A DNA stretch of 64,000 bases, from contig CM082584.2 in assembly GCA_040954595.2 (NCBI GenBank), forward strand, positions 13,199,337 through 13,263,336. Reading direction: 5' to 3'. Under the pieces are notes generated by a model. The model was not told the DNA's origin, did not search any database, and saw only the letters and a program-made list of their open reading frames with translations. Positions 1-63,368 of the stretch are shown here, piece after piece. Source of the DNA: Balanoglossus misakiensis (lineage: Eukaryota; Animalia; Hemichordata). Within the stretch, counting starts at the first letter, position 1; each line of letters starts with the position of its first letter. Made by a program: the position numbers and the translations under genes.

Positions 1-15036
<15,036 letters not shown>

Positions 15037-32800: not shown

Positions 32801-35800
32801 TTGGAGTTGCTGTAACTTGCTCTGGATTGCTGGGTGAGATCCTGACTTCTTGACGAGTGACAACAGCCACAAACAACTTGCCTGGAAAGAAGACATGGAG
32901 GTACTTTCATACATGACAAAATACTTTATGCGAACTATGATATCAGTATTTCAACCTTTGTCTTTCTTGAAAGGTTACATAGCCCTTACTTCCAACGCAC
33001 ATACCTGTCTGACATGTGGAACTTGATCCACACTGTATTTGGTTAGAATGGTTTCTACAAGCCATTCCATATCATCTTGACTTCCTTCACTCTCATCAGC
33101 TGTAAGCTGTTTCTCCTCCTCAGTCCACATATCTCTCCTGGCTGGTGACCTTTGACCCAGTGCAGCACAGTTCAACGCTTCCCCAACAGAGAAATGTAAA
33201 TGCACTTGTCTCTCCTGAAAATCCACACGGAAAGAAAAAAACATGGATGATGATCAGTATCAATGAAGTCCACAGTCTTCCTCTTCAGTGCAACACACAC
33301 ATGCAAACTCCATGTTGGATCAGAATGGCTGGCGAGTGTTAATGGGTATCTCACTCACCTTGGTTGAATCTAGCAATCCTTGAAGAACTCTTCTAGTATT
33401 CGGGAACTCATTGGCACCAACAGGCAGATAGCCCAGTGCCAGACATGCTTTCTCTTTCACCTTGTTAGCTTCTTTACTGGACTGTATCTTAGCAGCCAAC
33501 TTGTCAACAACCAATAACTTTGTACAGTGTTTGGCTGCAGAGCTGTCTTTCTTTGCACTCTTCTGATCAGATCCTTCACTGCTGCTTTTTCCGTCGTCCA
33601 CTTGGCCATCTTCCAGGGGCAGATTTCCATTCCTTCCAATCTCTCCAATGGCCAGACATGCACCACCATTCAGCAGTGCCTGTGAACTGTCCATGGTGGA
33701 AACTGCAAGATGGAAATAGTTCACTTCAGGATAATGATGATTTCATAGCCAATGTCTGACAGATACACATGCATCACACATATAAGAATAACACTCAGCA
33801 GCTAACTCACACCATGCATACAACAAACCTTGCTGTACCAACTCACCAATAGTTTTCACTGCATCAGCAATGGCTTCATTCAGCTGTTCCGAAGCCACAG
33901 TGTCTTCCAAATCTGTCTCCATGTCATGCACTGTTACATCAGACTTCTTCCTGTACAGGTATCTACCAATCAGGTATCCCAACGCTAACAGTGACCCATG
34001 CTGAGTTTCCAACCTCTGGAAAAGACAAGCTCTGTGATTGGTGGATTTCAACATCAACCACTGTTCTCCCATGATTGAGTACGAGACAATATAATACATG
34101 CAATCTAACTTTGCATCGCACATGTAGTTTTCTTATGAAGTTTACCTGGTCACTGATATTCTTGGTCAACTCCTTGACCACCTTCAGGAGTCTGCTGCTG
34201 TCCAGAGTACATGCAACTACAGCAAACAGCTGAGCTGCACTCTCTCTCATCTCTTCACGGCTGGAATGCATCAAAGCCTGTTGAGAAAATGAAACGGTGC
34301 GGTTATTACATGATCAAACAACAGTGTTGTTTGCAGGACAATTCCAATTTCATCAATCTGCAGTCAATGGAGACGCCTGTCAGTCAGATATCAGTCAGGT
34401 ATACAGCAGACGGCAGACAGATGGTGTGATATAGTGACTATGAGAAGAAGCATGAGAGCATACCTTGATCCATTCCAATTTATCCACAAACTGAGCAGCT
34501 AGTTTATTAGCAGCTACAGCTAAGATCTCCAACAGACAGTACATGGCCGTCTGGCTGGTTGAAGCTGATAGCAACTGTCTGGTCATATCCACATAGATCT
34601 GCACAGGTCCTTTGGATGGGTCCTTGCCAGCTCTCAGCAGTTTGTTGACATAAACACTGATGGTCGGTGCTTGTTCAATGCAGGGGTCACTCAGATTAGC
34701 GTCTATAGAGAGCCCAGCTGCATAGGCTAGACACATCCTCATGTATATTAAGACCTTTGAAGGAAATGCACAATGTTAATGGATGTCAGCAGAGACCTAG
34801 AGGCTTGAAGTCTCATGATTTTGTTTAGCATAGTTTTTGACACAGGTCTGCATCGCAACATCTCAGATATGGACTGCATGTAGACGATGTCTTACCTCAT
34901 TAAATATGGTTGGATTGAAAGACAGGTGGGTGGTGCCAATCACATGTCTGGCCTGACTCTTCAATCGCTGGGCTGCCTGGGGAAAACATACAACACACTG
35001 GTTAAGTACCTGTGCTCTGAATCAACAGAGGATCTCTAAATCATTATGGATCTTTTACTTCACAAGTCTCTCACAGATTATCCGTATAGACGGAATGGAA
35101 GGAAACAGAAAAGGGACCAAACTTACCTTTTCCTTGATATAATTAGCTAGTTCAGTGAAATCAGGGAATGGCTTCCATTCTTTGGTGTCGTCTTTATCAT
35201 CTGGTTTTGTTGGAGTTCTCAGAGCCTTTGTGGCTTCACCATGTATATCCTCTTTCCTGTGGAGTCCAAGAATTTGACAAAGTGTCAATGTCTATGTCTG
35301 TCTACAGATGTGGTCAATTGCTACATGCATATGCATTATATCTGCAGATTCATCTCTGTCATATCCAATGGTGTGGTACAATGTCCTGTGCATACGGTAT
35401 TTGCATTTTACGGCAGATCCACCTGTTAAATATAGCCAATGATAAAGTTATCAATGCAACTACTTACAAATCTCCTGATGCCAGTAACAGTGCATATCTG
35501 GATGGGATGTGAGTTGGTGGGAACACAGCAATCGCATACTGTACAGCAATCACCCGGGCCTGAGCTTCATTCTGTGCATGCGGAGAGACATGGTAATCTG
35601 ATGTTATCAGTAAAATAATCATTTGCCTGTGAAACAAAGATGTAGACTTTAATTCACACATAATGATGTACACAGAAAGCACAAATCCACTTACATTTTC
35701 TACATTGCTCATCACCAATGCTTCCATCAGCTTCACATTCGGTCCCTCCACATTCTTCAAAGCAGGTGTCATCATAGACAGTGCTTCTTGTACATGAAGT

Positions 35801-38800
35801 CTGGTTTCCTTGTCTTCAGTCTGTAGGAACATACAAATAACTTTTTAGAGTTGTCACTCGTGATAGAATGCAATAGTGACAGGGTTTTATTGCTGGAAAC
35901 TATTTCATTGAAATGGGTAAGTTTTGCTTCAGTGTTATCCAATGTGTTCTATAAGAGTACAGGTGTGTTTATTGTATCATGTAGTTTCAGAGCAAACCTA
36001 CTTTGCACATTGCTTCAAAAAACAGCTGTATCATGCCAATATCTTTGGTCACCATAATGGGTACTCTCCTGTAGATTGAAAATTACCAAAAAAACTGATT
36101 AATATTTATTAATGATTCACATCACTACATCTAGGAACATTTGAATTTTGGATGATTTGAATGATATACATATAATTTCATTCCAATCTTACCTTGCAAT
36201 TTTGCCAACTGCAACATACCCAAGTCCTTTCAGTTGATTATTCTGTGAGAAGAACACAAGACAATAAAATGTTGTCAAGTTCATTTTCAGCAATATGTGC
36301 ACCACATAAGAACTCATTTTTTGGAAAAATTATCATGACTTACATCTTTTGAGTTTCCAATGAGTTTTAACATTCCTGACATGAGTACAGGCGCCATTGG
36401 TGTTATCTTGGTATCACTACAACACAGACATAGATGATGGACAAACTGCACTGCATTCACTTTCAACTTGTTGTTGGTGTTGTTACCAAATAAACAATCA
36501 AACACAATCTGAAATAGAGGAAATGAGAAAATGAAACATGAATATCTAAAACACACAGTGCTACTTATTCATTTCTTATAACACACCTAAATTTGGCTGA
36601 TGCAAAAGTGCATCTCTCAGTCCTATGATTCAAGAATTATGAATGAAGAATACCTGAATGGAAGATGGAAATTGTTCGCAAGCTTCTCTTGATTTCAAGA
36701 GGAATGGGAACAATTTCATTCGGATTCTGGTGCTGGCTGGTGTGCGTCTGTCTTCGGGTTTGACCTGTGGTTTCTGGACAATGGACAAACAAGTCGTCAT
36801 TGAAACCTGAGGCATCATTTACTCTCATAATAAGTCACAAAATTTATCTGATATTTATTGTAGAAAACACTACCAGTACATATACTGCATCCAAGTATCA
36901 AAACAGCAAATATTTACCTGTCCTTTGACGACCACAGTACCCTGAAATATACTGTACATCTTCTTGACAATGATGGGATCATTCCAATCAATACCACTGT
37001 CAAAGAAAAATATGATAGATTGTATATCACATGACATTCAAGAAACGATATCAAAGTTTGAAATTTTGAAGTATATATCCTGACTACCTTTGCATTCTCT
37101 TCAATTCCAGATCAGCAGCAGTGGCCACACTGTGTCTCGTATCAGAACATCCAACAATCAAATGGCATACAACATCTTGTTCTGTCAGGATGTCTGCACC
37201 CAGGAAATTCAGGATTCCAACTTTGTTCTGCAAGCAGAGAGCAAAGAAGAATGTAGTGTTTGGTATGAGTGGCATTTGACACTTTCAGGCCTCATCTCCT
37301 AATACGAGAGTCCAGGGAGTCTGGACTTTAAAGGGAATAAACTGACAATAAGAAAGCATTACCTTCTCAATTTGTTCCGGGTCAGGAATATTCTCCCCCA
37401 ACACTCTCTTCATTGCATTCTGACTCAGACCGGCTGTGGGACTGGCTGCTGCAGCTGCCACTGAGCTGGCTGGTGCTGAACTTGGTCGACTTCTTCCAGA
37501 CGTCCCCGGGGCTCCTGGTGCACTTGGGGGTTCCGGTGGACCAGGGGCTGCTGCTGTACCTGGCCTTTCTTGGGTAGTTCCTCTGTTTGCATGGATGAAT
37601 TTTGAATAGAAATTATTTCTGTTTAAACACTGCTGTTTTGTGAACAGGATACGATCTTCACGCACAGATGTTGACTGTATTTTGAAACCATTCCAGTTTC
37701 AACAAAGGTTTATAATCTCAGAATACTCACCCATAAGTGTAAGGTAGGAATAAATAATCCAACATGAAATCTAAGAGCAGTTTCACAGTCTTTGGTCTCT
37801 CACTCAATCCAAACATCACTTTTCTTTTATCAGCATCGGGGGGATATTTGTACACACTCAAGGCTGGTATCAGAAGTTGCATCAAACTGTTGAGAAAGAA
37901 ATTGTTGTAATAATTACTCTCATCAAACCAATATATTATCATATTGAAGTATCCAATGGCAAACAGAGAGATTTGCTGACTAGTGTCTGCAACAAAGGAG
38001 TATAGTCTCACCTGTCCTGTTGTGCAGCTGGTTTTCCTTCAATGCACTGAATCAAGGTTGGTGCAAGGTCTGCCTGTTTCTCCGGGGCCATTCTGGGATA
38101 GCCCATTTTGATGTACAGAATTGTAAAATTCTGGAAAAAGTCAAAATACAATGGTCTGAGTTGGCACACAATGAAGGCATCAAGCTGGACAAAAGCAAAT
38201 AACTGCATACAACTCTTTCAAACAGTGGATTATACTGATCACAATGTTGGACTTACCGTTACAAAGGTTACAGCAGCAGGGTCCTGTAAATGATGAAAAT
38301 AAAAGTATTGGCTATAGATAATATAGATAAATGGCAATTACTGGTAAGTACACACCACACTATGACTGAGAAGAGAAGGCCAATGAGTCCCTTACCTGAT
38401 ACTGAAGCAGCAGTGGTTCCACTGGAAGCTGTATCTTGGGTCGACTTTTAATTCTTTTGTTAATATGTACCAGAAGTTCCATGACCTGGCAAATTAAAAT
38501 CGAGAAGTAAGTACTTCATGTACATGTACCTGAAGAGTCATTCATGCATATGAAGAGGACTCTCCCCTCGCAATCACAATTAATTGCATTATATGCTCAC
38601 CTTCTTACGAACTCCCTCTTGCTGACTTGACAGCTTGAGGAGAACGGGAGCCAAGAACTTGGAGACAACATTTTGTAGTTGTTCGTCGGTTTCTGCTGAT
38701 CCAACACGCAGGAATACCCTCTCCAGCAACTCTGCAATAAGAACCAAAGTTGAGTTGCATGTCAACCACATACCATTGCTCTTTGGATAAACTGGATGTA

Positions 38801-40079
38801 GCCTGGACAACCAGGGACAAGCTCACAGGTTAGATCAGGTTGCAGTTTTTTTATTGCATCCACAGAATCATGTGTAACACCACAGATGGAAGTCAAGCTA
38901 TTTATGCTGCTGACAGTACGGGCACCGGTTATACTCTCAAACATGCAAGTAATTATTTCTAGCAGTGTTTTGCTAAGTTTGGGGAATCCTGATAAACGTC
39001 ATTTGGAAACTCAGGCAATGCTTTTGTTAGTCATTAATGTTATTGAATTGATGAATGAACTCTGGTAAAAGCTTTGGGTACTGCTTTATTACATTCAGTT
39101 TTATGTCAATAACTTTGCAAGAATACCAGCTTACTATTCCACAGTGTATCTGCATATGATAAAACCTTTACTGCCCTAATGTATAATTGGTACTCCCTGT
39201 TGTACGACAGAAGGGTACTTTCAAAATTGGTCCCTTCTGTCCCGCAACCTTTGACGGCAAAATATACATGTATACATTAGGGCAATAAAGATCAAAATGT
39301 GACTATACTGATGACATTTACTTTCAGGGTTTGATCGCGGAGTTGACTGCATTGCAGAGAAGTATGGCTTGGCAGTTATGGTTATAGGAAAGATAGTAGT
39401 GTGCTTGAGTTGATCTCCATGACTTTTCAGAAGCTGCCACTTGGATTCACAGCTGATGTTTCTGTCACAGAGATGTTGCAGAACAGTATAATCAGTACTT
39501 AAATAATCGAGACATTTTTTCAGTTCAGTATTCCCCAAGAACAAGATCGCATCTAATGGAGGATAGTCTTTTCCCTATGCTTTACACTGAGTTATATATC
39601 TGCACTGAAACTTACAATGAAACGTGATTACACATACATGATGATTCATTCTCCTAGTCATCTCCTACTTTTATCCAGAATTCGTATTATTGTCGTGTTC
39701 TGTCTGGGGGAAAAAGATCACCCATGGTCTGATTTCTATGGTGCCGTCATGTTTCTGTGGACATAACTATTACTGCTTTCCGAGCAGCCATCTTAGAGGC
39801 ATTCCAACTATGTCGCCTTGTGCAGTGATCGGATCGTCGTGACATGACATGCACAAAAATCAGAGCGGGTCAACAAACACATCAACGTGGTGGCGACCGG
39901 TCTCACATAGACGCTGAAATTCTCGTTTTCTCGTCGTTATTAACATTCTAAACAATTTTGATGATGACGATACTAATGATCGTTTAGTTAACGCAATTTT
40001 CCGTCCAATGCGATTATTTTTACTCGTCCTTCAATAATTTTTAACAAGTTGACTTACCCAGTTCGTCCTGTGCAGCCAT
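23852..40079 (-). CDS. ECPAS: Proteasome adapter and scaffold protein ECM29 (HEAT repeats), roughly 40+ exons
   Basis: Starts MAAQDEL|[36 protein letters not shown]. Hallmark segments: [37 protein letters not shown]|[39 protein letters not shown]. Last exon ends ...[10 protein letters not shown] at 23852. Confidence 0.95.
29185..31637 (+). CDS. Nested antisense gene: secreted coiled-coil + EAR/EPTP-repeat (TSPEAR/LGI-type beta-propeller) protein, 519 aa
   Basis: Exon 29185-29623 has a signal peptide ([18 protein letters not shown]), a Cys motif CAYTYII and a heptad coiled coil, ending in a phase-1 donor. Exon 30517-31637 is in frame and carries about 7 EAR-like repeats ([51 protein letters not shown]). 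It lies entirely in the ECM29 intron at about 28639-31922. Confidence 0.88.
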
Positions 40080-40665: not shown

Positions 40666-43600
40666 ATGAATGTTAGAACACTACAGAGTCGACCCCGATC
40701 TAAAACATGGGGAAGCACTGATGCTCAGAGCGAAGGTACAGTTGTTGACGACGTACCCCCATCGCCATCATCGCCTTTATGTAAACTTCCCGGTAATTCA
40801 CTAGCTTCTTGGCTTGCTGCTTGTGCATGATTCCCCCAAATAGGTCCATGCTAACATGTATCATTACCACCGTTGCACCATGTTTTGCTTAGCTCTGTAG
40901 TTAGACCACTGTTGTTGTTTTCCGGTCGTGTTTACTATGTTTACGCAACATACATCACAGTTCATTTCAGCTTCGGACGTATTGTTCTATGTTCATATAT
41001 ATCGACAATGGCCGGATGTGAGTGAACACAATGAATGTAAATGTACTTATGGAATCAAAGGGGGATATGAAAGATAGACTAGTGCGTTTTTCACTTGTCA
41101 AGTTTATTTTGTGTGGAGAAAGATACCATATTGCCACTGTTGGGATCATGTTTGAAAGTGGCATGGATGGGAAAACGCCTCCGTTGCGCAGACAGCTCGT
41201 GCATCATGGCCTGACCGGCTTGGATGACGTACTTGGCATGGTCAATTGTTTACCTGTCACGTGGTTTCCATATAGTGTCCTTGTTTTCATTGCAAGGTTG
41301 CTTTCTCTTGGGGAATAGTAGGATTTGAGGTCGTGGGGTGGACATACAGATCGCAGAATACAAGAGAATACTTCTGATCTGAATTTCCACCAGGGGGAGT
41401 TCACCAGGGAAAGTTAGACCACTCTTGATGGAGAAGCTAGAACAAGAAGTTAACTGCAGGCAGTTGGAGACAGTATAACAGATCTCATGGTTAACTGGAG
41501 CACCACAACCATGTCCCTGGAAAGCGTGATGACACATTTTGTCGCTTTTGATGAAGGTTAACTGATTTTAAATTTTAAATCCGTAGCAAATCATTCTTGA
41601 AAGGCAAAGGGAAAGCTAAATCTGTTTGACAGAACACCCAGTACACTTATAGTATTACCGGTAGTGTAGCTTTCCCATTTGACCATGGAGGTAGTCCTCC
41701 TTCCTATTACCCCATTCATCAAGTAGAAGGGAAGAAGGGTTTACCCTTCCAGCATAGGGTTGCTTATTATTTTCCTGAGACTTGTCAACAAACTCTTAAT
41801 TGTTTCTCGTTTCATTTCCATTTTATTGAGTTTTTGAGGACAATGTATGACTTCACTGAAGTCCAGACAGTGATTCAAAATGGTTTCCCAAGGTCAGCTA
41901 CAAAAGACTTGACTATAAAGTTCAAATCTGAACAATAAACATATTGCCCATCTTGGTTATTATTACCATGTGTGAAATACATGTGTAATTTTAATGTAAA
42001 TTTTTCCAAGCATCTCCTACTGTTGTGTAAATCACTTGTGTCACCCTTTCTTGGCTTTCTGAAAATGGCGGGATCACTATTAGATTGTTGGCTAAGACAC
42101 AGTCATTCACACCTTTGAAAAATTCCAGCATGGTTATTGTGTTGTTGCAAGCATCTGTTTACTGTCTTTTGTATGTATTTGTGTTTGGTACCACCATATG
42201 CATAGGAGTCCCCTTCTTGTTTCTGTAGTGTACAGTACACCACAGTCCCTGACTGAGTACAACATGGGCACACGACCACATGCTACTCTGTCTTCCATAT
42301 GCAAGGAGCAGCAGCAAAATGCGTCTACCAAAGGTTATCATCGTCCATTTGCAGATATCACCACTCACAAGAATGTTTTGATCATGATAACTTAAGGAAA
42401 TGTCTACTTGAGTTTATTCTAATGAACATAACATTGATTGAGAACCTTCTGCATTGTTTGTATTCCACAGAGTTTGAAGATGAAGACTTGGACCCACCAC
42501 AAAGTTATGGCAGTTTCAGTCGCCGGACGACAAGAAGGGAAGATTCTTTGCTGTCGGGATCTTCCATTAACTCACAGACCTCAGTGGAGGACAGGGTCAG
42601 GAGGAAACTCAAGTTTTTCTTCATGAATCCTTGTGACAAATACAGAGCGAAGGGAAGGAAGCCATGGAAATTGATGTTACAGCTTTTTAAGATTGGACTT
42701 GTCACCCTGCAGGTAAGAGGTTGTGGTGGTGGTGGTGTTTCAGTAGAGGGCACATTCCATTTCAGAACTGACTGTACATGTACATATCTACTCCCGTATG
42801 TCAGTGAACAATATGGCCGCATACTGTATTGACACAATTCTTCAGAAAGGCTGGCAAAATCCACTAACACTGTCCGAGGTATCTCTTTCTTCTATTCCAG
42901 CTGGTTCTGTTTGGGTACCACCAATTCTCTGTGATCAACTTCCAACAGCAGAACACGGAATCCTTTGAACATTTATTCCTTAAAAACTGGGATTCCAGTC
43001 TGGATAGCAACACCTACCCCAAGAGTGCTGGTTCCTTTGCTGTCTATGAAATCAGTGATTTCTACAGTCATTTAAATTTTACAATGACTCGGGTGAGTAT
43101 GCCAATTATTTTCATGGTTTTCTCAGACTCTGCCTTGCTCAGCAGGCTTGGAGTTATATTATTTTATTGGAATGGCTGCGGTCAAGTTATAATGTAAGAT
43201 TCTATACATTTACACCATGTATACTTTTACTTCTTACAGTATGTAAACATAGAGGATATAGCCATTGGACATTATCACCACACAGGCAACCTTTCCAGTG
43301 AATACTTACCACCCATGAAAGTATGCATCGTTGAATACAAAGCTCTGAGGTTAGAAGGTCAAAATTATACATTCAACCAAGATGAAAAGACAAGTAAGTA
43401 TGAAGATATAATTTCAGTTATGGATGATCTTTGTGATTTGACCTTGTATCTGTCTGTGTGTGTGTTTCTTGCATGCAGAAGATTACCAATGTAAGCTTAA
43501 TAGGGCTACCAAGTACCAAGCAGGATAATCTATTGTTTATTGATGCAGACAGATCTTTGTAGTATTGGTGCCTTGTTGCAATTTACAGGTCTTCCTTGTC

Positions 43601-48179: not shown

Positions 48180-49878
48180 ATGTTACTATCGGCTGCACGG
48201 TTATCATCTGAAGCAATTGTCTGCCTTATTTTGCTGTCCCATCTCATGAAATCGGGTCAATGTATCTGTAAGTAAACTTCACATGCTATTCAAACAACAT
48301 ATACAAATAGTCGGTCTAGCAGAAATGTTTTCACTATAACAAAGTTTGTCAAACTCTATGAATTTATACTATTCCGAATTTTTCTGATCTGGAAGACGTA
48401 GATTTTTTTTTATTTCTGGTGGTGACAATGTTCACGTGCTATACTTTTATTTTAAATGGTTCTTTTATTTTAAATGGTATGGTATTCGGCCGTTTTCCAG
48501 CAGTAAAAACAGCACCTATTTTTCTCAGGAGTGGGTTAAGATCAACAGGTGGTTAAAACCAAGATTGGGATGACTGCGCAAAGCTGTGATTTAATAATCG
48601 TTGTCGTATGAGTCTCTGAGCTGATGTCAACGAAAAAAGATTAAACAAATACACATATTTATCTTCGAAAGATAACTGTGGTCAGTTATAGGTCGACTAA
48701 TGTTAGTAACATAGGAATGCATGCCCGTCCCAACGCATGTGTAGAGTGACCTATGACCTGGGTCAAGCTCAGGTCAAGCTATCACCTGACATATATGTGA
48801 CACCCTGATGCCAAATAAATGTTTCTCCAAATCCAATATAGATTATATGACAGACTTTTGCAACCAAACAATCTCATCGCACGGTGACAGACTCCAGTCC
48901 CAAGAGGCTGAAACCTATGAGAGTAGCTTAGAATGTGTTGTAACTCTGCAAACCGAAAACGAGAAGGAATACATCTCCATCGATGTAAGTAAATCGTCTA
49001 CGTAATAATATTGTATTGTAAACTCTGAGACCAATCGAAAACAGTTTTATCGATTTACGATTACTAATACTTGGGACATTGAAAAGCTTACCGGTTCAGC
49101 CTGAAGTTTTTTGTGTTCTCTTCATTGTCATTAAATTGACCTCCTATCTTCCCCCTAGTACGAGTGGTATGAACTGGAAAAGGTGGAGACAACCTGTATC
49201 GATTACCTGATGATCTATGACGGCCTCAGTTTACATCCAAACGATATATTGCACTGGATATGTGGGCAGGAAGACGACCCATCAACGTCCACCATGTTTT
49301 CCACCGGAAATATTCTGACGCTGAGATTCTTTACAAATACCTTCATCAATGGAAGAGGATTCTCACTGATATTTACAACAATAAAACGTAAGTTTTATCC
49401 TTTATTATTGATTCAAATGCTATTTCGTTGTGAGATCTGTCTTGCTAGAATACAAATCGATGTGATACCTCATCTATCGTGATTTTCTGTCAAATATAGA
49501 GGGGGATTGCATCGGTGAAGGCGTCTATTATTGTGACAATAACAGATGTATTGATTCATCTGTGGTCTGTGATGGAATCAACAACTGTAGCGACGAGTCG
49601 GACGAGTGGTACTGCGATGAAGATCCGAGTAAGTTGATCTTTAGATGAAAGTCTTAGTGAAGAAATTAGTTCAAGTTTTGTTTTAAGTTTGTTGTGTTCA
49701 CAGACGGTTTTGACAGTGTTAACGTAAATCAGTGTCGTTGAAAGCGTTTTCACGTCAACCTTTATTTCCAGATCTCGTTGGGTTGTACGTGTTTCTTGCG
49801 CTGGCTGGGGTTCTTGCTCTTGCGTTCGTGGCTCTTGGCATATTGCGTGTGACTACCCGGAATCGCCAATCTACATGA
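48180..49878 (+). CDS. CUB + LDL-receptor class A single-pass membrane protein (LDLRAD/NETO-like architecture)
   Basis: Signal exon from 48180; CUB exons 48842-48984 and 49159-49387 (CIDYLMIYDG..ICG..STGNILTLRF..GRGFSLIFT); LDLa exon at about 49500-49628 (YYCDNNRCIDSSVVCDGINNCSDESDE); TM exon at about 49773-49878 with a short tail. Confidence 0.85.
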
Positions 49879-51339: not shown

Positions 51340-53135
51340 ACTATAAATACGACTATAGAGTTACTTACATTTTCCTCCATACTATAGTGTAGAATATGAC
51401 CACCATCCCGATCAGTATCAATAAATTCACCAGTGATAAGGCAAGTACAACTACTACAACTCTTTCGGCAGTTTCTGCAAATAGAAGAGAATTATGATCA
51501 GTCTTCTAGTAAATAACTCAATAATGATTACAGAAGCCGGAAGATCTGCGCTCAAAACTTCCTTTGTACATGATCCCATGGCTTATATAAAAATGGTTCA
51601 CTCATTACCTATTACTTTGGCTTTTTCTACCATGTCGACGTCTGTTTGTACTACAGCGTTTGGGGTTTCATGGTTATAAGACGCTGCGGCCTGGGTCGAC
51701 GTCACATCGGCGATTTTATACTTCTTTTTCTTTGTCCGGTTGTCTGTCAGTTAACAACAAAAATCACCATGACAACCGGTAAACTCACTGCTCAAACATA
51801 GTGAAATACAAAAACACGTCCGGTCAAGGAAATATAATGATTGCATGGCCTATAAGGCAAATCTTGGGATGACGATTGTCACGGTTTCACAATTGAACAC
51901 AGTTTTATAAAAGGGAGACCATGGTTGTACTTTAATTTTGAACTGTACACCACCGTTTACCTTCTGTGTATTGGCATATGTATCCTTTCATAGAATCACA
52001 CAGGTCATCTTTCCAACGGAAGTTGTTGTCCTGTCTGTCGGGAAAACAGAGGTATATCATGAAAATGATAATTGTGTCTAACTGTTCAGTATAAAAAGTG
52101 TATCTTGATGTGATAATTAAAATGGTCTTACGAAAGTTCGGCACAGTGTTGGTTGCCTCCACATCGACGACTCCCCTCACCGTTGTTCGGCTGTCCTTTC
52201 GCCCAGTTGAAGTATCTCAAGAATTCCCCATCTTCGGTGCGCCAGTGTCCTTCCTCCCCGATGTCTTGGGCACTGAACCAAAAGTCGATGTGATTCAGTT
52301 GATGGCGCTCTTTTATGAGGAACACAAGATGAGTCTGCGTAATGTTGTCCGTGATTTTAGCCAACGTTCCCCCTTTTTCGTTGCAGATATCTCGAGCATT
52401 GTACCAAGTCTCACAGCCAGCAAATATGTCATATCGAACCCATTTGTCTCCTGTAAAAACATAACGTAATATCAAAGCTTTACCACAAATATTAATAATG
52501 CATTCCATGATTCCAGGATGGGAAAGGCGTGTCATCTCCTCCTGAAGTACATTTGTAGAAACATTTCAAATACAGAGATCCCAAAGTCGAAAATGGATCG
52601 TAGCGCATACTCGTCTCGGGTACAATAACCTCGCCACTGCATTTGCAAAGGTCAAATAATGGTAAGCAGACACTGATCACTTCGGATTGTAAATGGAGTT
52701 ATAATTAAATCGCGCCATTCCATTAAAAATGTCTGTGCTATTAGAAGATAAAATCAATTGAGTGTAGAAATTGATACAAAAATCCTCTTAAAAGTATTTT
52801 GAACACATTTTAAATAATATAATAGTTTTTTAATCAGGTTGCGTTCAACCCTATAGCAACTGTTCACCATCGAGAGTAATACTAGCCTCTGGTAAAAGAC
52901 GCGAAGAATTTCCAATTATGTGTACAACATCCAGTCTTTCTATTTCGGGTATGTCTTATCCCTTCATACGATGGCTTCCCAGTTATACGTCTTGGTGTAT
53001 ACGGTCAGATACAAGTAGATTTGTTTCTTCTTTTTCCCTTTTTATATACTAGACAGCTAATAAGGTATGTGATTGGGCCTTACCTGTTACTAAGGCGACG
53101 GCGATCAAAAGCAAAAAAGCTGAAAGTTTCGCCAT
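51105..53135 (-). CDS. Type I transmembrane C-type lectin domain protein
   Basis: Signal exon 53084-53135 (MAKLSAFLLLIAVALVT); possible 21-nt exon 52868-52888; CTLD exons 52132-52451 and 51961-52034 (WYNARDIC..FWFSAQD..YFNWAKGQPNN..QHCAEL..WKDDLC..YICQ); stalk 51608-51743; TM exon 51369-51474; tail 51105-51180 with YKDL. Confidence 0.85.
51253..51339. repeat. (GAT)29 microsatellite, intronic in the C-type lectin gene
   Basis: Uninterrupted GAT run between the lectin TM exon and tail exon. Confidence 0.95.
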
Positions 53136-54516: not shown

Positions 54517-57500
54517 ATGAAAGTCGCGGTTGGGCTACTGTGTGCAACACTGCTGCTGGTGTTTGTTCTGGACATCGCTGAGGCTCACGTTAGAATAACA
54601 TTTCCACCAGCACGGGAGTACGATTTCGACTTTCTGGACAATATTCGCACCCAAGGCCCATGTGGTATGCGCTCCAGCTCAGGTAGGTTTCTCCTTTCAC
54701 GTGTTCAATTCAGATAACTGTGAAAGGTTCCAATCAACGTTGTTTGCAATATTCAACACCCTCGATTTTTCCACCAGTTCAGGCCACTCCCTTCAATAAT
54801 TTCTAGTGCGCAATGCTTTCATTTTTACCAATATTATTAGGTTTTTATAAAAGAATCTAAACTTTTGCAATATGGATTTTTCTCTCCTTCAGCTGGACCT
54901 CTGACAGTGCTGAAGACAGGCCAATCTCTCAATGTCACTTGGCATTTGGCATATGCTCATCGGGTAGGTAACAGATCATTTAGCTGTGTTCTGACATCCA
55001 ACTGTGGAGACTGTGTCATTGATGATGACTTGTAACACAATCTCTGCACCGGAGTTTCTGTCAGGCAGTCAACTCACTGATAGGTGACTTTGTTTTTTAG
55101 GAAGTTCTTTTCTCCAAAACAACATGTGCCAGCATGTTTGCAGTTTGGCAAATGTTTTTTTTTTTTTTTTTGCCATGTGACTTCCTTATACTTATTGGTT
55201 TCAGTGAAGTCGTGATCACTTAAAACTTAAATACTGGGTGTGTGCTTTGTTTGTTCAGGTCAAAATGTCAGCTTTTGTACAGATGTACATTTCCTGGTTG
55301 ACTCGCAAGTCAGATTCTAAGCTTCATTAGTTTTCTTTCAGGAAAAATGAACTCTATCTGTTGGCCAGAGTATCTTCACCATAAATTGTTTGAGGAAGCT
55401 CTTGCCTACAAAGATTCAGTGTTTTCAAAAACCTATTTTTCTTGATTGACTTTTTTGGGACATTACTTAATAGATAATCATTTAAAGTGAAAGTGTGACA
55501 TGTCAGTGGAAATTGCACCCATTATCAAAGATTTCTTACATTAATTATGAAATAGCATGATAAAAGGAATTATTGGAACCACGTTTATTGGAAAACATGC
55601 TTCTTTGAGGACCATGGCGTTACAAAGCCTATAATCCTGTAATTGCTTGGCAGGAAACAGTTTTAATCCTGACAAATGCTAAGTCATCTTGATGGCGTCT
55701 TATCCCTGAGTCATTAGTCTGTGCACAGATCTGGTATGAGCCATAAACTGAACAGTAAAATGTTTGTTTGGTGTATTGATGGATAGCAATTCCAGATGTG
55801 ATTGAAGTAGTGAGTCAGCACATTTCCTAGGAGTTAGACAAGAAATGGAAATGACCTAAAATACTGTCAATTAAGAGACTGTCTTTTCCCCATAAGATAT
55901 TTTTGTTCACATATAGATGTGTCCAACCCGGCCATTGAATGGATAGACTTGAACCTCTTTGGGGCATTGGAAGGATTTCAAACATGACTTGACGGATTCT
56001 TTTGACTTGCCTGCATGATTACACACGCATTGTTCTGTTGTAAAAAGGCGTCTGTGAATGACCCACAACAGTGAAATGGGGACAGTTCCAGGTGATACCA
56101 CTTGTATGGTTCGCTTAGAAATATACCCATATAAACAAGAATATGTTGTGATTCAGATATGTAAATTAGTGGCAGAGGCTCCCTGTGGATTGTATGCCAT
56201 CAACAATTTATGTTGTGAACTGAATATGCAAGTGTATCACCGTGGCCTCGTTGTTGGGGTTAAAGGTCAATGGCACCCAGGTACTTCAAAACAAATAGGG
56301 TGACTGTACAAGTACAATAATACACCAGCACAAATATGTTTTAAAAATTGGAGAATATGAGAGAAATGATCAAACTATTATTTAATGCAATAAAATAAAA
56401 TCGAAATTCATCAATGGGAGTGTCAAATGTAATGTTAATATAGGTGATATTTTAAGCCCATAATATTAATTGATCAATCAATATGACAATCCCATTAAAC
56501 AGATAACAGCATATGCAAACTGAGATAATTGTATAGTTTTAATTATTACGTGTTTGTGTAATTTGTTAGGGTGGAGTTCTGATCGACATCTTGAATGAAA
56601 ATGAAGAAGTGGTTTACAACTTGACAGATTCTGATATGGATAACTTTGTTCATCAAGATGATACAACGTAAGTAGATGTTCTTTTGGTGTTTGCAGTTTT
56701 AAAAAAAAGTTCTCTGTTTATACATGTAGCTGCTTTTACTTAACTTGCTTGACTCCCTTTAGCATGCTGAAAAATTCAATGTTTCATATTGTAATGAATG
56801 TTAAAAAACCTTTTGCAGATCACAGCAAGTGGAAGTCACTTTACCACCCACTTTTACCTGCGATCAGTGTACGCTACGGTTACTCCGACAAGCAGGAGAG
56901 TGGAGGGCCAACAGACCAGGCGGTTATCTTTTCTGGAGCTGTGCTGACATCCAAATCACAGGTATGTTTTGAAAATGGAGTGTGCATGGCGTCACAACTA
57001 TCTGAAAAGTCCTGGGAATGGATCACTTGTTAATATTTGGGAAGACCAGATTCCGAGCTAACCAATTCAACAGATAATATATATGAAGAGTTTACACAAT
57101 AATATTTTGTGTGTTTTTTTTGCCTTGCAGATGCTGCATGTGATGGAAACCAAACATGCAATGGAGTGGGAACCTGCAACAGTGAAGGCACATGTGATTG
57201 TGAGCTTGGTTACCATGGCGATTACTGTCAGTATGCAGGTAATGAGCATTTCTGCATAGCATGTGCAATTTTCATGTCTGTGAGAAGAGGGATGCATTTT
57301 AGTTTCTACTTTCTATTCTCAGATTGGCATAAGTTATGATGCAGCATTTTCTGATTCTGGAGTGATTATTATACTTAATATGTGAATTTTTACCATTTAT
57401 TTATTTATAGATGGGTGTGTGAGTAATGCTGATTGCTCAGACCACGGACAGTGTCTGGATACCATGGCAACAACTTATCCCAAAAGAGTGTGCTACTGTG

Positions 57501-60500
57501 AGGATGGCTATTTTGGTGATGACTGCTCCAAAGGTAAGTCATGTGACTGATTTTTGAACTATACACACTGGTTTTCTTAGTACCATGACAACTAATCAGT
57601 GATGATGTTTTTAATTTTATGCAGCCAATCCTGCAGGCTTCAGTGCAACAATAACGAAACGCAATTACCGTCACGCTCAGCTTGCTGACGACTTTGATAT
57701 CTATTGGAAGCTAATGACAGTGAGTATAATCTTGACTGAGATATGTTTTCTGTTGAAAGAATACTTTGATATCTGTGCAGTAAAGTATTTAAGGAATAAC
57801 TACTATGAGTGTCTGAAAGGATATAACATCGCCATCTAACAAAGTGCACGGGAAAAATATATTTTCCAGACCAGTTGGTTCACAATGACAAAACCACTCA
57901 AGTCTATCTGCCTGTTGAATATTCTCAATGTCATTTTCTAGGACCAAGATGAAATCGAAATTGCGCTTGAAGTGAGAACCACAACATGGGTGGGCATAGG
58001 CTGGCGACCAATGGGTAGGTAACTATTACAAATGTACCCCATGGACAACAATTTTGTCATCAATCATGGCCAAATAGTTGGAATTATTAAGCTTTAAATT
58101 CTGACTTCAGTTTTAGTACATCATTGATCAAAGTATATATATATTGACTTTTGTATCTGTGACTTGTAATCCAGGTTTATCCAGTTCATGCCAGAACTTT
58201 CCAATCCAATACAATGGATATCCAACAAATGAAAACAACGCAAATGGAAATAATAGGGTAAGTACTTCAGCTGTCAGTTAAACCAACTCATACTGTGCAG
58301 CCAAAAACTTGTTAAACCTGTATGGTAACGCCCTGGAACGAGCGATCTTTCAGTTTACATATACCAGTGATTGATGTGTTTTTGACCAACAGCGTCGTCG
58401 CAGTTTTGTCAGTACAACTGACTTGGTAGACAAATCTGAATGGGAAACCTTGGGCAGATTTCGCAGGGAGCAAGGTGACCCTGAGATGTATGACTGTGAT
58501 TCGGCCGTCTCAGATCCTGCAGCTGGACCAGAACCAAGCGCAGAGACCGAACCAGAACCAAGCGCAGAAACCGAACCAGAACCAACTTCAGAAACCGAAC
58601 CAGAACCAGAACCTAGTACGATGGAGAGATTTTCATACCATTTTGTCTTTTTCTATTAAAAAAAATTTGACCATGGAAACCATGCAATCACGGTTTGCTA
58701 TTTCCCAGAACAAGATGGCATATAATGTATGGTGTTGTCCATAGGTTTTTCCTGTATCATGAATATGACATTTTGATAGATGACAATTAAACCAATCATA
58801 CTCCTATCTGTGAATGCCATGAGTAAATAATTGTTTCCCTTTCTATCAGATGTAGGTCATGCTATGGATTGCACTGACATTGTAATTGGAGGTGTGAAAA
58901 TGGGAACTCTAAGTCGTATTGGCGATTTCTACACCAGGGACAGATCAACACCAAGGCTGGATGAATGGTATTCAACTGATGGCAGTGACAGTCTGGTGGC
59001 AGCAACGGGCAAAGAAGTGGATGGAGTCACAACTATTGTGTTTCGCAGAAAACTAACAGGTTTGTGTGGAAATGCTTTAGCGTCCAGAAAATAAGTCTTG
59101 ACAGGATGGAAATTATTTTTGTGGATGCTTGAAATTCTGGACGATTTTTCAACTCTGCCAGCTCTGATGATGAAAGATAAAAACAAACATTGGCAACTTA
59201 ATTTTTTTGTCACCAAACTTTAGTCCAGGGAACACGATGTACAGCGCCACCATTGTTGCAACTTTCCGTAACTTTTGTTTTCAGCATGCAAATCTTATAC
59301 ATGTATTGGGATTAAAAAAACATGTTCAACAGTTAACTTAAAGGCCAGCTTAGACTCTGAATTTGTGTTAATTTTGTCTCTTGTTCATTTAGCAACTGAA
59401 ATGACTGATCACAGCATCCGTAATTCACTGATGCACATCATCTGGGCCAGAGGTCAGGAACCGGGCAGTTATTGGCACATACCATCATCTGGTATTGAGA
59501 CCTGCATGGCAACTGATTACATGTTCTATAGAAGAGATGAGCTGAAGTACCATGGAACTTCCAACATGCAAAGAGGAGTGCGAACCATGAATTTCTATGG
59601 TGAGTGGACATAGACTTTTGCCAGAGTTTGGCATATATCACACAGTTACAAGTCTATTCCATTCATAGTGTGAAACTATAGTACCTTGGTTAACCAGTTC
59701 TGGGACAGAATTTAAGAAATTAAATGATTTTTTGCCTCACAGAGGATCCAGATGCACCAACAGCTGGGAATTGCCGGGGAGAATGGAGCACTCCTCAAGG
59801 ATGTGCCGGATCTGACTGCACTTACCGTGCCACATGGATGTACAGAGACTCGGATGACACCATGACATTTGAGATAACATCTAGGAATGGTGGGAATGGC
59901 AACTGGGTTGGGATTGGATTTTCAGATGATACAAGCATGGTAGGTCTGCGTGTTGTGTGGAATCAGACATTTTCACTTCTCTGCCTCGCCTTGTTCAAAT
60001 GTAAAGTTTTTATAAAGAACCATGGTAGGAGTAAATGAGTGCTGAGCACAGAAACATGAGAAACTATCAGTTGAATTAGTCACACATGTTGGAATTGTAT
60101 GAAAGTGTTTCTTGTCTTGTTCACAGCCTAACAGTGACATCATCGTAGGGTGGATCATTGACGGCCAATCAGAAATCACGGACAGATGGGCCACTGGAAG
60201 ATCACATCCAGCCGTTGATGCACAGAATCAACTCACCAATACAATGATAACAGAGAACAATGGGGAAACAACCTTGAAATTCACCCGAAAACGAAACACC
60301 AATGATAATCAGGTATTATAAATCACTAATTTTTAAAATAAAATTGAAGCTCCCTTAAGCCAGAAGATACAGACCCGTGGCATGTTGTAATTTTATCATT
60401 GCCATTTCTTGCAGGATATTTCCTTCAGTGATTCAGATTGCAGATACCTCTTCTATCCAATCAGTGGAGGCCCTGTAATGAACCATGACACTATGCAAAT

Positions 60501-60843
60501 TGGTTACCACACAAGCACGCCAGTCATTTCGACACGCAGAATTTGTATCTCAACATGTGATCAAGAACTTGGTATGTATCTCTTCTGATGAAATACTTTG
60601 CAACCAGTTTTTATACTCCTGATGGTAGCATGAAAAACAAGACACTACCAAACAACTTGTATATTGTGCCTGAATAATACTTACAGATGTTTTATAGTGC
60701 TGTACAGTAGGATGATTCCAGTCAGCGTCGTAGACTTAACACATTTAAAATATTTGTTTCTTTCAGCTGCTGCAATGTCCAACATGCCTTCAGTGCTGCT
60801 GATTGTCATGGCAACAGTTTTGGGCTTCTTAACAAAACAGTGA
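54517..60843 (+). CDS. Histidine-brace LPMO-like domain + 2 EGF + 2 DOMON + GPI-like signal, 738 aa, 16 exons
   Basis: Exons 54517-54682, 54893-54963, 56570-56667, 56819-56961, 57131-57238, 57411-57533, 57625-57719, 57942-58014, 58175-58257, 58393-58615, 58850-59059, 59393-59599, 59743-59939, 60127-60312, 60415-60571 and 60767-60843 sum to 2217 nt with consistent phases. DOMON motifs: WVGIG, M..TDIVIG, FRRKL, IIWARG, YH. The C-terminus is hydrophobic (VLLIVMATVLGFL). Confidence 0.88.
58527..58614 (+). repeat. Coding 24-bp tandem repeat encoding a Pro/Glu-rich linker (PEPSAETE)n
   Basis: About 3.5 units of ccagaaccaagcgcagaRaccgaa. Confidence 0.85.
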
Positions 60844-62303
60844 TGGGATGGTCTGTGTATGAACACTAATATCATATGAAAGACCCCCTTGTATTTGTAT
60901 ATTTTGCTATAAACAAGATGTGGATGTAAGTCTGCCTGTCATATATAAAAGATTGCTTAGCTGTATATAAAGAGAACATCTGTCTTAGTTTAAATTAGTA
61001 TTCAAGGTATTTCAAAATTTATTCCAGACTGTTTATCAATAGGAAAGCAGAGAATATACATGTATATACAGAGAGAGATTTTGTGGTATAATTTGTCCAT
61101 CTTTTTGTTATATTTCATAAAAATGAAATTAATTGTATATTTCCCATACAAAAATGTAGAACTGATTTCATCAACTAACTTAATTACACTTGTAGTCCTT
61201 TTTGCCACATTTCCAAATAAACATTATTCCAATATTATCCATTGTGTTTTGTTGTACATGTTACACAACTCTATATGTTAAAGATTCTTTGATGGAGGGT
61301 GGGCGGGGCTGGGGCCAAAGTTGTTGGAAATTAATCAATATGAGACCAAATGTGGCTTAAAAGTGTGTATGGTATGATATGAATATACCAACTCTGATCA
61401 AATTTGGGACAGTGTGCTTGCCGCTTTATTTGCCATATATAAATAGATCAAAATTTAACTACCATGATTCTACTGTCTGTTTTATTGAATTGTCAGAAAG
61501 GTGTGAAAAACTTTTTCGGTTGTCAATGGATTTGCGCCCTCCATAGTAGGACGGATGAAGTACATGTAGTTATATGACAGATTACCTGTCTTCTGTATAT
61601 CGCTTAGATTTCATACCAATGGCCGAGATAACAATGCAGTATAATATAATGTTTAATCATATCGCGGCTACGTGGCAACCCCAGTGTAATACTGATAGCA
61701 AGAGTGGACAGGGGAACGTCGTCATATATTTTTTCAATCCGGGTCTCATCTTAGCCACGTCAATAAAAAGCCCCATGGTTGCAAAATATTTGTTAGTTCA
61801 GATTGCCAAGGCAGATATTCCAGTATTTTCTTCAACGAACATTCCCATCTCTGCGTAGAGTTACAGCCACTTTTCTTGAGAATGTTCGCGCTGTTTCACA
61901 TTTATTTTAGAAGTGTGTGTAGTATAGGGTTGATCCCCCGGAATAAATTGCGGCGTCCGTGGAAAGTGACTACAGCGCGCTCACCATATGTTACGAACAT
62001 ATCCACACATACTGCATGTCCTGATTGACTTGTTCCCAACAGCTGGTGTCTGTGTTGAGCCTAACTGTTTACACCTTCGAAAGAATAGCATAATTAGCGG
62101 CCGCATGTGGGTGTCTCCTACGCAAGGGCGACTCGGTAAGGAAGGGCGCTCGCTCGCAAAAGAGTGAAGGCGACAAGACGAGCGCTTCCGGGTGGAAGAT
62201 ACATGATGCGTCTGGCCGCGTCTTGACTGAAATCGACAACGTACGACGCAGTTGCGTGTTTCTGCTACAAACACAGGTAATTTCTGACAACAGGGCAAAT
62301 ACA

Positions 62304-63368
62304 ATGGAGCTTCTTCCTCTTCAAATCATTTTCATGGCTGCCATTTTCTCCGGCACACTTATATGCGGCTTGATACCGATGAAAATCATTCCCAGGCCGG
62401 GGGACAACAAAAAACCGCTGACCGAACGCTCGCGTCGCATCCTTGCCATATGCAACTGTTTTTCCGGAGGCGTTTTCTTGGGAACATGTTTTCTAGGCGT
62501 CATACCCGCAGCAGAGGAGAAGCTCGAGGCCATGCTGCTGGAAAAAGACATGCAAACTAGCTACCCACTGAACGAGCTCATCGTCATGATTGGGTTTGTC
62601 TTTATTCTCTTCCTTGAGCAAACCGTGTTGACGATCCAGAAAAACGTTTGCGGAGGCAGCGATGGAGACAACCAAACCATAGAATCTTACTTGGAGCTGA
62701 GTGATACTAGCAGTCGGGCTATGCTTATCGCAGATTCCACTGATGAGGAGGAAATTGTCAGTAACTATGGTAACACAGTTGATGGAAAAACTGCAGTTAA
62801 AAAGGGAAACAGGGATGCCAATCTTCATGATCATCATCATCATCATCACCATCATGATCACGGACATGATCATGCCAGTCATGGTGATTTCGGACATAGT
62901 CACATACACCTAGATGGTTCCAACACACTTCGATCTGTGATACTCTTGCTTGCCCTGTCGTTTCACTCTTTTCTGGAAGGGATGGCATTCGGACTGCAAG
63001 ATGATGTTCCCAGGACTATCAACCTCTTCATTGGAATCATTGTCCATGAATGCCTGGCATCATTTGCGTTTGCTGTCAGCCTCGTAGGAGCATCACAGTC
63101 TAAACGTTCAACCATCTTATATGTACTGCTCTTCAGCATAATGATCCCAGTTGGAATGATCATCGGTCTGACTCTACAGACGTCACCCAGCCCAAACGCA
63201 CAATTGGCATCAGCTATCCTTCAGAGTTTTGCTGCAGGAACTTTTATACATGTGACTTTCTTTGAAATTCTTGCTGATGAGTTTGAGGTGGATTCTGACA
63301 GAATTATAAAAGTGCTCTTTTTGACATTGGGTCTTGGTGTGCTTGCTGCGCTACAGCTTATAGACTGA
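62304..63368 (+). CDS. ZIP family (SLC39A1/2/3-like, subfamily II) zinc transporter, intronless CDS
   Basis: CNCFSGGVFLGTCFL, YPLNELIVMIGF, His-rich loop HDHHHHHHHHDHGHDH, TM4 ALSFHSFLEG, TM5 IIVHE (ZIP3-like), LQSFAAGTFIHVTFFEIL. Confidence 0.95.
   Translation: MELLPLQIIFMAAIFSGTLICGLIPMKIIPRPGDNKKPLTERSRRILAICNCFSGGVFLGTCFLGVIPAAEEKLEAMLLEKDMQTSYPLNELIVMIGFVFILFLEQTVLTIQKNVCGGSDGDNQTIESYLELSDTSSRAMLIADSTDEEEIVSNYGNTVDGKTAVKKGNRDANLHDHHHHHHHHDHGHDHASHGDFGHSHIHLDGSNTLRSVILLLALSFHSFLEGMAFGLQDDVPRTINLFIGIIVHECLASFAFAVSLVGASQSKRSTILYVLLFSIMIPVGMIIGLTLQTSPSPNAQLASAILQSFAAGTFIHVTFFEILADEFEVDSDRIIKVLFLTLGLGVLAALQLID

Follow-up and report, generated by a model that had tools for sequence, protein, structure and literature searches.

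A hemichordate nahoda-family protein predicted to join a histidine-brace domain of the LPMO fold to two heme-type DOMON domains

How the copper sites of lytic polysaccharide monooxygenases (LPMOs) are reduced in animals is an open question, and it is one that the protein family described below addresses. AA15 is a secreted LPMO family with an animal and algal range. The report on its member TdAA15A (structure 5msz), in the excerpt available, names His1, His91, Tyr184 and Ala89 as active-site residues and could only suggest gut dehydrogenases as the reductant (PMC5823890). The cytochrome domain (AA8) of cellobiose dehydrogenase (CDH) or of the pyrroloquinoline quinone (PQQ) pyranose dehydrogenase (PDH), a DOMON-like domain with a Met/His heme b, reduces the copper of fungal LPMOs (PMC8981238, in excerpt). 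Here we analyze a gene on the forward strand of a 64,000-nucleotide stretch of DNA from Balanoglossus misakiensis (assembly GCA_040954595.2, contig CM082584.2, positions 13,199,337 to 13,263,336; hereafter the window). Its predicted product, the window protein, carries an N-terminal domain of the LPMO fold (N-domain), two EGF domains, two DOMON domains and a tail resembling a glycosylphosphatidylinositol (GPI) signal. Whereas the heme domain of CDH and PDH sits on a separate dehydrogenase, the window protein has heme-type and copper-type domains in one chain and no dehydrogenase.

Four other systems come close. The CYBDOM proteins (Arabidopsis HYP1, insect CG8399, FRRS1/SDR2) move electrons from ascorbate to the other side of the plasma membrane and are able to reduce Cu(II) (PMC10784544, in excerpt). 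They share extracellular Met/His DOMONs with the window protein, and two algal relatives of it share their DOMON-b561 end; however, they have no histidine-brace domain as described, and the window protein has no b561. X325/Bim1 proteins have a histidine brace, which is predicted for the window protein too, and they share a small LPMO-like fold (Z 7.8-9.8) and a predicted GPI anchor, but they have no heme domains, and the Pfam BIM1-like model stays below its cut-off for most relatives of the window protein. In dopamine beta-hydroxylase (DBH), a DOMON is already known to be joined to a copper monooxygenase, and its copper domains are of another type. Its DOMON is the best fold match to DOMON2 but is without the Met/His pair, which marks heme-binding DOMONs and is absent also from sugar-binding ones (PMC10691727, in excerpt). 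The insect nahoda proteins have the same N-domain, EGF pair, split DOMON1 and DOMON2 at about 35-45% identity. They differ at the C-terminus, where a SEA domain, a transmembrane helix and a cytoplasmic tail replace the GPI-like end.

In the literature, nahoda appears in a fly deficiency gene list (PMC4321029) and as a marker of accessory-gland secondary cells in the fly (10.1101/2021.06.13.448152); our search, which had subscription journals outside its scope, found no functional study of the family. DOMON/EGF sequences come up in the LPMO tree of one 2019 paper, which gives no mechanism, and the excerpt of a preprint places DOMON among the domains of predicted LPMOs (10.1101/2025.06.05.658061). 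The accessible part of a review on LPMO modularity gave no match to 'cytochrome' or 'AA8' (PMC10154629). The parts of the window protein are each of a known kind, and we did not find their joining in one chain, or the algal b561 fusion presented below, described beyond a passing remark.

The gene spans positions 54517..60843 (+ strand; all coordinates are those of the window) in 16 exons. All 15 introns are GT-AG, and a single frame encodes a 738-residue homologue of insect nahoda. The initial annotation has all seven of its residue coordinates right: His24 (54586), His78 (54958), Phe150 (56931), Met400 (58864), His518 (59551), Met599 (59937) and His693 (60508). Pfam, run on 14 exon pieces, detected EGF in exons 5 and 6 (57131..57533, +; EGF_2 above cut-off in both) and DOMON in exons 8, 11, 13 and 14, with weak hints for the N-domain (BIM1-like, E 0.067; LPMO_10, E 0.074). 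We infer the joining of the exons from the open frame and from relatives. Alignment with Saccoglossus protein P0001 shows colinearity at all 15 junctions; four of these (160, 395, 534, 662) have a small gap next to them, and likeness at the tail junction is only weak. Identity to P0001 reaches 69% in the N-domain (94/136), 68% in the EGF pair, 74% in the second half of DOMON1 and 60% in DOMON2.

Two features of the gene could suggest that the fusion is a gene-model artefact, with the N-domain exons and the DOMON exons belonging to separate genes: intron 2 is 1.6 kb long, and the exon joining is predicted from sequence alone. We consider such an artefact extremely improbable. Besides the single open frame over 16 exons and the colinear Saccoglossus protein, we inspected 79 metagenome loci, of which 25, apparently intronless at the match, were translated. 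DOMON1 is present in 22 of these, and 14 of the 25 hold the N-domain and both DOMONs in one frame, which argues against an artefact and bears out, in relatives, the proposed fusion in one polypeptide. Because they are near-invariant across phyla, the key residues of the window protein are, judged from sequence, not there by chance. Within the 64-kb window, tblastn returned this one copy only. A word search with exon 4 alone, limited in sensitivity, gave no match.

The N-domain (aa 24-159; 54586..56961, +) is encoded by exons 1-4 (54586-54682, 54893-54963, 56570-56667, 56819-56961). For fold comparison we modeled P0001, both as the domain (27 rows, mean predicted local distance difference test score, pLDDT, of 77) and as the full protein. 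Among 48,161 chains, the top 16 matches to the domain model are all LPMO or LPMO-like. AA15 5msz ranks first (Z 9.5, root mean square deviation 3.0, 121 aligned), and the other matches include AA16 7ze9 (Z 9.3), AA10 (8.8), AA9 (8.3) and X325 (7.8). With the full model, the match to 5msz rises to Z 11.5 (root mean square deviation 2.8, 132 aligned), and the first aligned pair sets His22 of P0001 on His1.

The Pfam LPMO_10 model (cut-off 23 bits) gives 19.8 bits for P0001, 21.0 for P0019 and 27.2 for P0109, and the BIM1-like model (cut-off 27 bits) gives no match for P0001, 25.4 bits for P0041, 27.7 for P0095 and 31.6 for P0119. The best N-domain profile is NCBIfam NF043005, the SCE4755 polysaccharide monooxygenase-like family, which is bacterial and itself hypothetical; our literature search found no paper on it. 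P0001 matches it at E 5e-11, and 8/8 full relatives score 28.5-42.9 bits (P0001 42.9), all under the 75-bit cut-off. The top neighbors of the N-domain in the ESM Atlas agree with the SCE4755 family. A phmmer search of P0001 against the PDB returned EGF matches only.

The residues predicted to build the brace follow the AA15 pattern. The signal peptide (54517..54585, +; 23 aa, ending A-E-A) would be cleaved just before His24 (54586..54588, +), as the initial annotation proposed. We judged the cleavage by sequence pattern: position -1 is small and position -3 small or aliphatic before the His in 101/106 diverse relatives, whose signal peptides are otherwise free to differ, while residues further upstream in the same signal peptides are small in 26%. 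The same pattern was found in 36/36 members of another set, the window protein included. Profile alignments to 5msz (E 7e-4 and 2e-4) set His78 on His91 and Phe150 on Tyr184, so that the axial Tyr/Phe of the last AA15 strand is present as Phe. They also set Tyr76 on the axial Ala89, which lies two positions ahead of the second His (Tyr76 and His78, 54952..54960, +) and Tyr148 on Glu182 (Glu139-Trp140, Tyr148 and Phe150, 56898..56933, +). In AA15, Glu182 has a second-sphere role, and Glu139 or Gln136 may stand in for it here.

We counted conservation over 159 aligned rows from 150 representatives, using covering rows only; the counts are biased upward, since the search profile holds the same residues. 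His1 is kept in 109/109 rows, Asp38 in 112/113, His78 in 131/141, Tyr76 in 109/137, Glu139 in 100/108, Tyr148 in 89/106 and Phe150 in 98/107. We weighed His73 as a candidate for the second ligand and discarded it: it is kept in just 93/132 rows and aligns with the non-ligand His86 of TdAA15A, so that His78 is the indicated second ligand.

Together, the fold matches and the residue alignment support the LPMO-like fold and the histidine-brace residues claimed by the initial annotation, the copper site being predicted. Its placement of the domain as AA10/AA15-type stands for the fold, the His pair and the axial aromatic, but the domain is not a plain member, since the positions of Ala89 and Glu182 are both Tyr. 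Identity to AA15 is 16-20%, and the EGF and DOMON fusion differs from the AA15 partner domains named in the excerpted literature, namely CBM1, CBM14, GH18 and GH19. We therefore describe the N-domain as looking like a histidine-brace protein of the LPMO fold and do not assign it to AA15.

Both DOMONs bear the residues expected of heme domains. The first part of DOMON1 (57625..58197, +; exons 7-9, detected by Pfam) ends in Cys298, and the second part (58850..59599, +) holds the predicted heme ligands Met400 and His518; DOMON2 (59743..60571, +), recognized by the fold of the P0001 model and by conservation, holds Met599 and His693. In 41 relatives of at least 550 aa, many of them close insects, Met400 is kept in 41/41, His518 in 41/41, Met599 in 40/40 and His693 in 38/39 where covered. 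A diverse set has both DOMON1 halves in 50/57 proteins of at least 330 aa, with Met in 45/45 and His in 36/36 where covered. The fold comparison concerns DOMON2 only, and DOMON1 is assigned by Pfam and motif position. DOMON2 of the full P0001 model matches DBH at Z 14.3, the PDH cytochrome b domain at 12.0 and the CDH cytochrome domain at 11.8, and its Met aligns on the Met of the PDH GxSxxxxM motif in a weak match (E 0.16). Conservation, fold and motif alignment thus agree with the earlier proposal of heme-type DOMONs with a Met/His pair, in which heme is predicted.

DOMON1 is split by a low-complexity insert of ~95 residues (58207..58615, +) with Pro/Glu/Ser repeats and a furin-type RRRR (codons 58255-58257 and 58393-58401), which the initial annotation overlooked. 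The insert is disordered in the P0001 model (pLDDT <50), and its flanks carry Cys298 (59/59) and Cys402 (41/41). The furin-type site follows the pattern R-X-K/R-R. It occurs in the insert of 49/59 proteins in an arthropod-heavy set, compared with 2.2 expected, and in 18/34 long inserts of the diverse set, compared with 1.0 expected. A furin site universal in the family was rejected on that second count and on its absence from three named molluscs. RRL motifs, which we take to be subtilase (site-1 protease) sites, occur in 7/34 long inserts, compared with 1.2 expected; they lie in algal inserts (P0151, P0164, P0165, P0192, P0193), where animals have furin-type sites instead. A furin-type cut in the insert would yield two chains, likely joined by a Cys298-Cys402 disulfide.

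The initial annotation called the protein self-reducing. This wording is too strong, because neither a dehydrogenase nor a b561 is part of the window protein and an outside donor would be needed; the algal b561 parts gave no match within the 64-kb window, which sets the protein apart from the CYBDOMs. Its idea of an electron relay, however, gains support from algal relatives. Among 46 long relatives scanned, 35 have a DOMON at E 1e-5, and two of them also end in a cytochrome b561 above the Pfam cut-off: P0151 from Mesostigma and P0165 from Bryopsis. Each has the N-domain, the EGF pair, DOMONs and the C-terminal b561, and each keeps both brace histidines, the axial Phe, the DOMON Met/His and four His in b561 spacing. 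Both are predicted proteins. Their algal lineages differ and the tree does not make them sisters, so that a shared annotation error is unlikely. The fusion is observed; read as an electron path, it would make the wire complete, from ascorbate by way of hemes to copper. It also suggests a separate b561, or ascorbate, as the electron source of the animal proteins. P0226 is a longer isoform of P0151.

The family reaches well beyond hemichordates. A search with exon 11 yielded 66 relatives of 166 candidates, with Saccoglossus P0001 first and insect nahoda proteins included. A profile of seven N-domains, run against 1.84 billion representatives, found 1,227 at E <=0.001 and 280 at 1e-10; the N-domain family analysis uses the best 150 of the 1,227. 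Taxon names were read for 30 proteins and taken in addition from the exon 11 relatives. They comprise a sponge, molluscs, nematodes, arthropods, echinoderms, hemichordates, a tunicate, four green algae and Rhodelphis; vertebrates were absent from the names read, and no taxonomic census was made. A tree built from 32 selected sequences joins the window protein to Saccoglossus (support 0.98) within a group of echinoderms and hemichordates (0.98). The five sequences of the algal side are united as a clade (0.95), and deep nodes lack support. Shared architecture and sequence similarity over the N-domain, EGF pair and DOMONs place the window protein in the nahoda family. As the initial annotation had anticipated, homologues are already in databases under DOMON or EGF labels, namely as nahoda, 'DOMON domain-containing' or 'EGF-like'.

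Several variants were seen within the family. Expanded DOMON arrays follow the N-domain in P0118 (Haliotis), P0101, P0087, P0092 and P0109, and in P0118 Pfam marks as many as 8 stretches of DOMON and 7 of SEA. Five proteins (P0053, P0061, L020, L021, L022) form a short subfamily with one DOMON, a loop of 24-26 residues replacing the insert and no furin site, and they stand apart from the others in a further tree (0.99). The relatives P0090 and P0161 (Angiostrongylus) have three additional TIL (trypsin-inhibitor-like) domains. The ESM Atlas also holds stand-alone clusters of 156-167 aa that resemble the N-domain, mostly from molluscs, arthropods or zoopagomycetes; these are possible candidates for unfused small histidine-brace proteins.

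The window protein ends in a single hydrophobic tail (60767..60843, +). By eye and hydropathy, it shows the order of a GPI signal, with small residues, a polar spacer, a hydrophobic end, 2 residues after it and the stop codon, which matches the predicted GPI-like tail of the initial annotation as a pattern. Insect and crustacean relatives carry a conserved cytoplasmic motif (FYFMPSQRK...) after the transmembrane helix, and it is absent from the GPI-like forms.

The feature is real, and its core reading stands as a prediction with good support. Our favored interpretation, held at about even confidence, is that of a GPI-anchored surface protein in which DOMON hemes would pass electrons to a likely copper histidine brace, which would then oxidize an extracellular substrate, most likely a glycan. 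Signal peptidase would expose His24 as residue 1, as the -1/-3 pattern indicates. Following the alignment to TdAA15A, copper would be bound by His24 and His78 with Phe150 axial, and, from position and conservation, hemes would be ligated by Met400/His518 and Met599/His693. Electrons would come from outside the chain, most likely from ascorbate via a separate cytochrome b561, a source favored because two green-algal relatives carry b561 in the same chain. With O2 or H2O2, the reduced copper might then act on a substrate in the matrix or at the surface, which is the least certain step. The furin-type cut in the DOMON1 insert would give the two linked chains. We also put forward a wider and more doubtful idea, namely an ancient family of self-wired surface oxygenases. 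In it, electrons would run from cytosolic ascorbate through b561 and one to about eight DOMON hemes to the histidine-brace copper and on to glycans or matrix. The b561 would be fused in some green algae and separate in animals, and the proprotein-convertase cut of DOMON1 would be a maturation step.

A number of observations weigh against surface oxygenation of a glycan. X325 proteins have the brace and, in the excerpt available, show no polysaccharide activity (PMC7924993), and X325 and AA16 lie within about 2 Z units of AA15. The positions of Ala89 and Glu182 are Tyr76 and Tyr148, and the domain, at ~136 aa, is about 60 residues shorter than the 195 of AA15, from which we conclude that the substrate face differs from that of AA15. 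Pfam found no carbohydrate-binding module in P0001. The X325 precedent, the two second-shell changes and the lack of a binding module together call for caution about catalysis. The family includes both algae and animals, whose cell surfaces differ, which makes the choice of any one substrate tentative. The structure models are of Saccoglossus P0001, standing in for the window protein, and the first 20 residues of its N-domain model have a pLDDT of only 52-58. On the heme side, the best DOMON2 match is DBH, whose DOMON binds no heme (PMC10691727, in excerpt), and b561 is found in only 2/46 long relatives scanned.

The same brace could serve copper uptake, binding Cu(II) at the surface for reduction by the hemes and handing Cu(I) to a Ctr-type importer, after the proposal for Bim1 but with a reductase wire attached. 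Bim1 works with Ctr1 (PMC7924993, in excerpt), CYBDOMs reduce cupric ions (PMC10784544, in excerpt), and several relatives match the BIM1-like model, with P0095 and P0119 passing its cut-off. The Z of 9.8 for X325 in the full P0001 model, the GPI-like anchor and the two changed second-shell positions fit as well. We nevertheless regard uptake as unlikely: the axial aromatic of catalytic LPMOs is kept, X325 ranks below AA15 and AA10, and Glu139, Trp140 and Tyr148, all conserved, point to an elaborated second sphere and a substrate face. Alternatively, the wire might drive O2 reduction at the copper and supply local H2O2 for cross-linking or signaling, with no polymer involved. LPMOs without substrate make H2O2 (PMC10154629, in excerpt), AA16 LPMO-like 7ze9 is tied with AA15 on the N-domain (Z 9.3 vs 9.5), and the domain is small and comes without a detected binding module. 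This surface oxidase seems quite unlikely to us, as aromatic residues are conserved close to those of the brace and would suit the binding of a substrate.

In both alternatives, as in the oxygenase reading, copper and heme would be bound and electrons would pass from heme to copper; taken over the three readings together, we consider this very probable. It would fail if the modules acted apart or without redox chemistry, in an adhesion or matrix protein whose LPMO-fold domain only binds a ligand and whose DOMONs either have a small molecule as their ligand or supply a different acceptor. Adhesion proteins typically have EGF and SEA domains and long spacers, the DOMON fold is closest to that of DBH, and contact between N-domain and DOMON is hypothetical. 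However, the metal-ligand positions are all kept together from algae to arthropods, and in the b561 fusions the N-domain becomes the terminus of a redox chain, which makes a non-redox role very unlikely.

Since the same chain carries the likely copper domain together with heme domains of the CDH type, joined by the trans-membrane b561 in two algae, electron delivery to a histidine brace becomes testable in a single protein. The reading as a self-wired surface oxygenase, if true, would give nahoda a molecular function and would mean an enzyme of LPMO type that runs on the trans-membrane electron flow of the cell itself. The family also makes a concrete target of a conserved gene that is present in the fly and for which our search found no functional paper, and it points to oxidative chemistry or copper handling at the cell surfaces of sponges, molluscs, nematodes, arthropods, echinoderms, hemichordates, tunicates and algae.

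For the neighboring genes, we ran Pfam on 64/269 long frames of the window, which gave no functional clue. The window contains mucolipin exons (42868-43494, +), a CUB exon (49159-49482, +), a C-type lectin exon (52128-52565, -), a single-frame ZIP zinc transporter (62094-63368, +) and an EGF/fn3/CUB gene (6898-10025, -), and no link of any of these to the LPMO-like/DOMON gene was seen. A 283-aa frame (763-1614, +) in a strongly skewed stretch has no Pfam match. The - strand carries a gene for the proteasome adaptor ECM29 (24000-39000; several Pfam ECM29 exons), and inside it, on the opposite strand, lies a 386-aa frame with four EPTP repeats (30477-31637, +), which is likely a nested gene.

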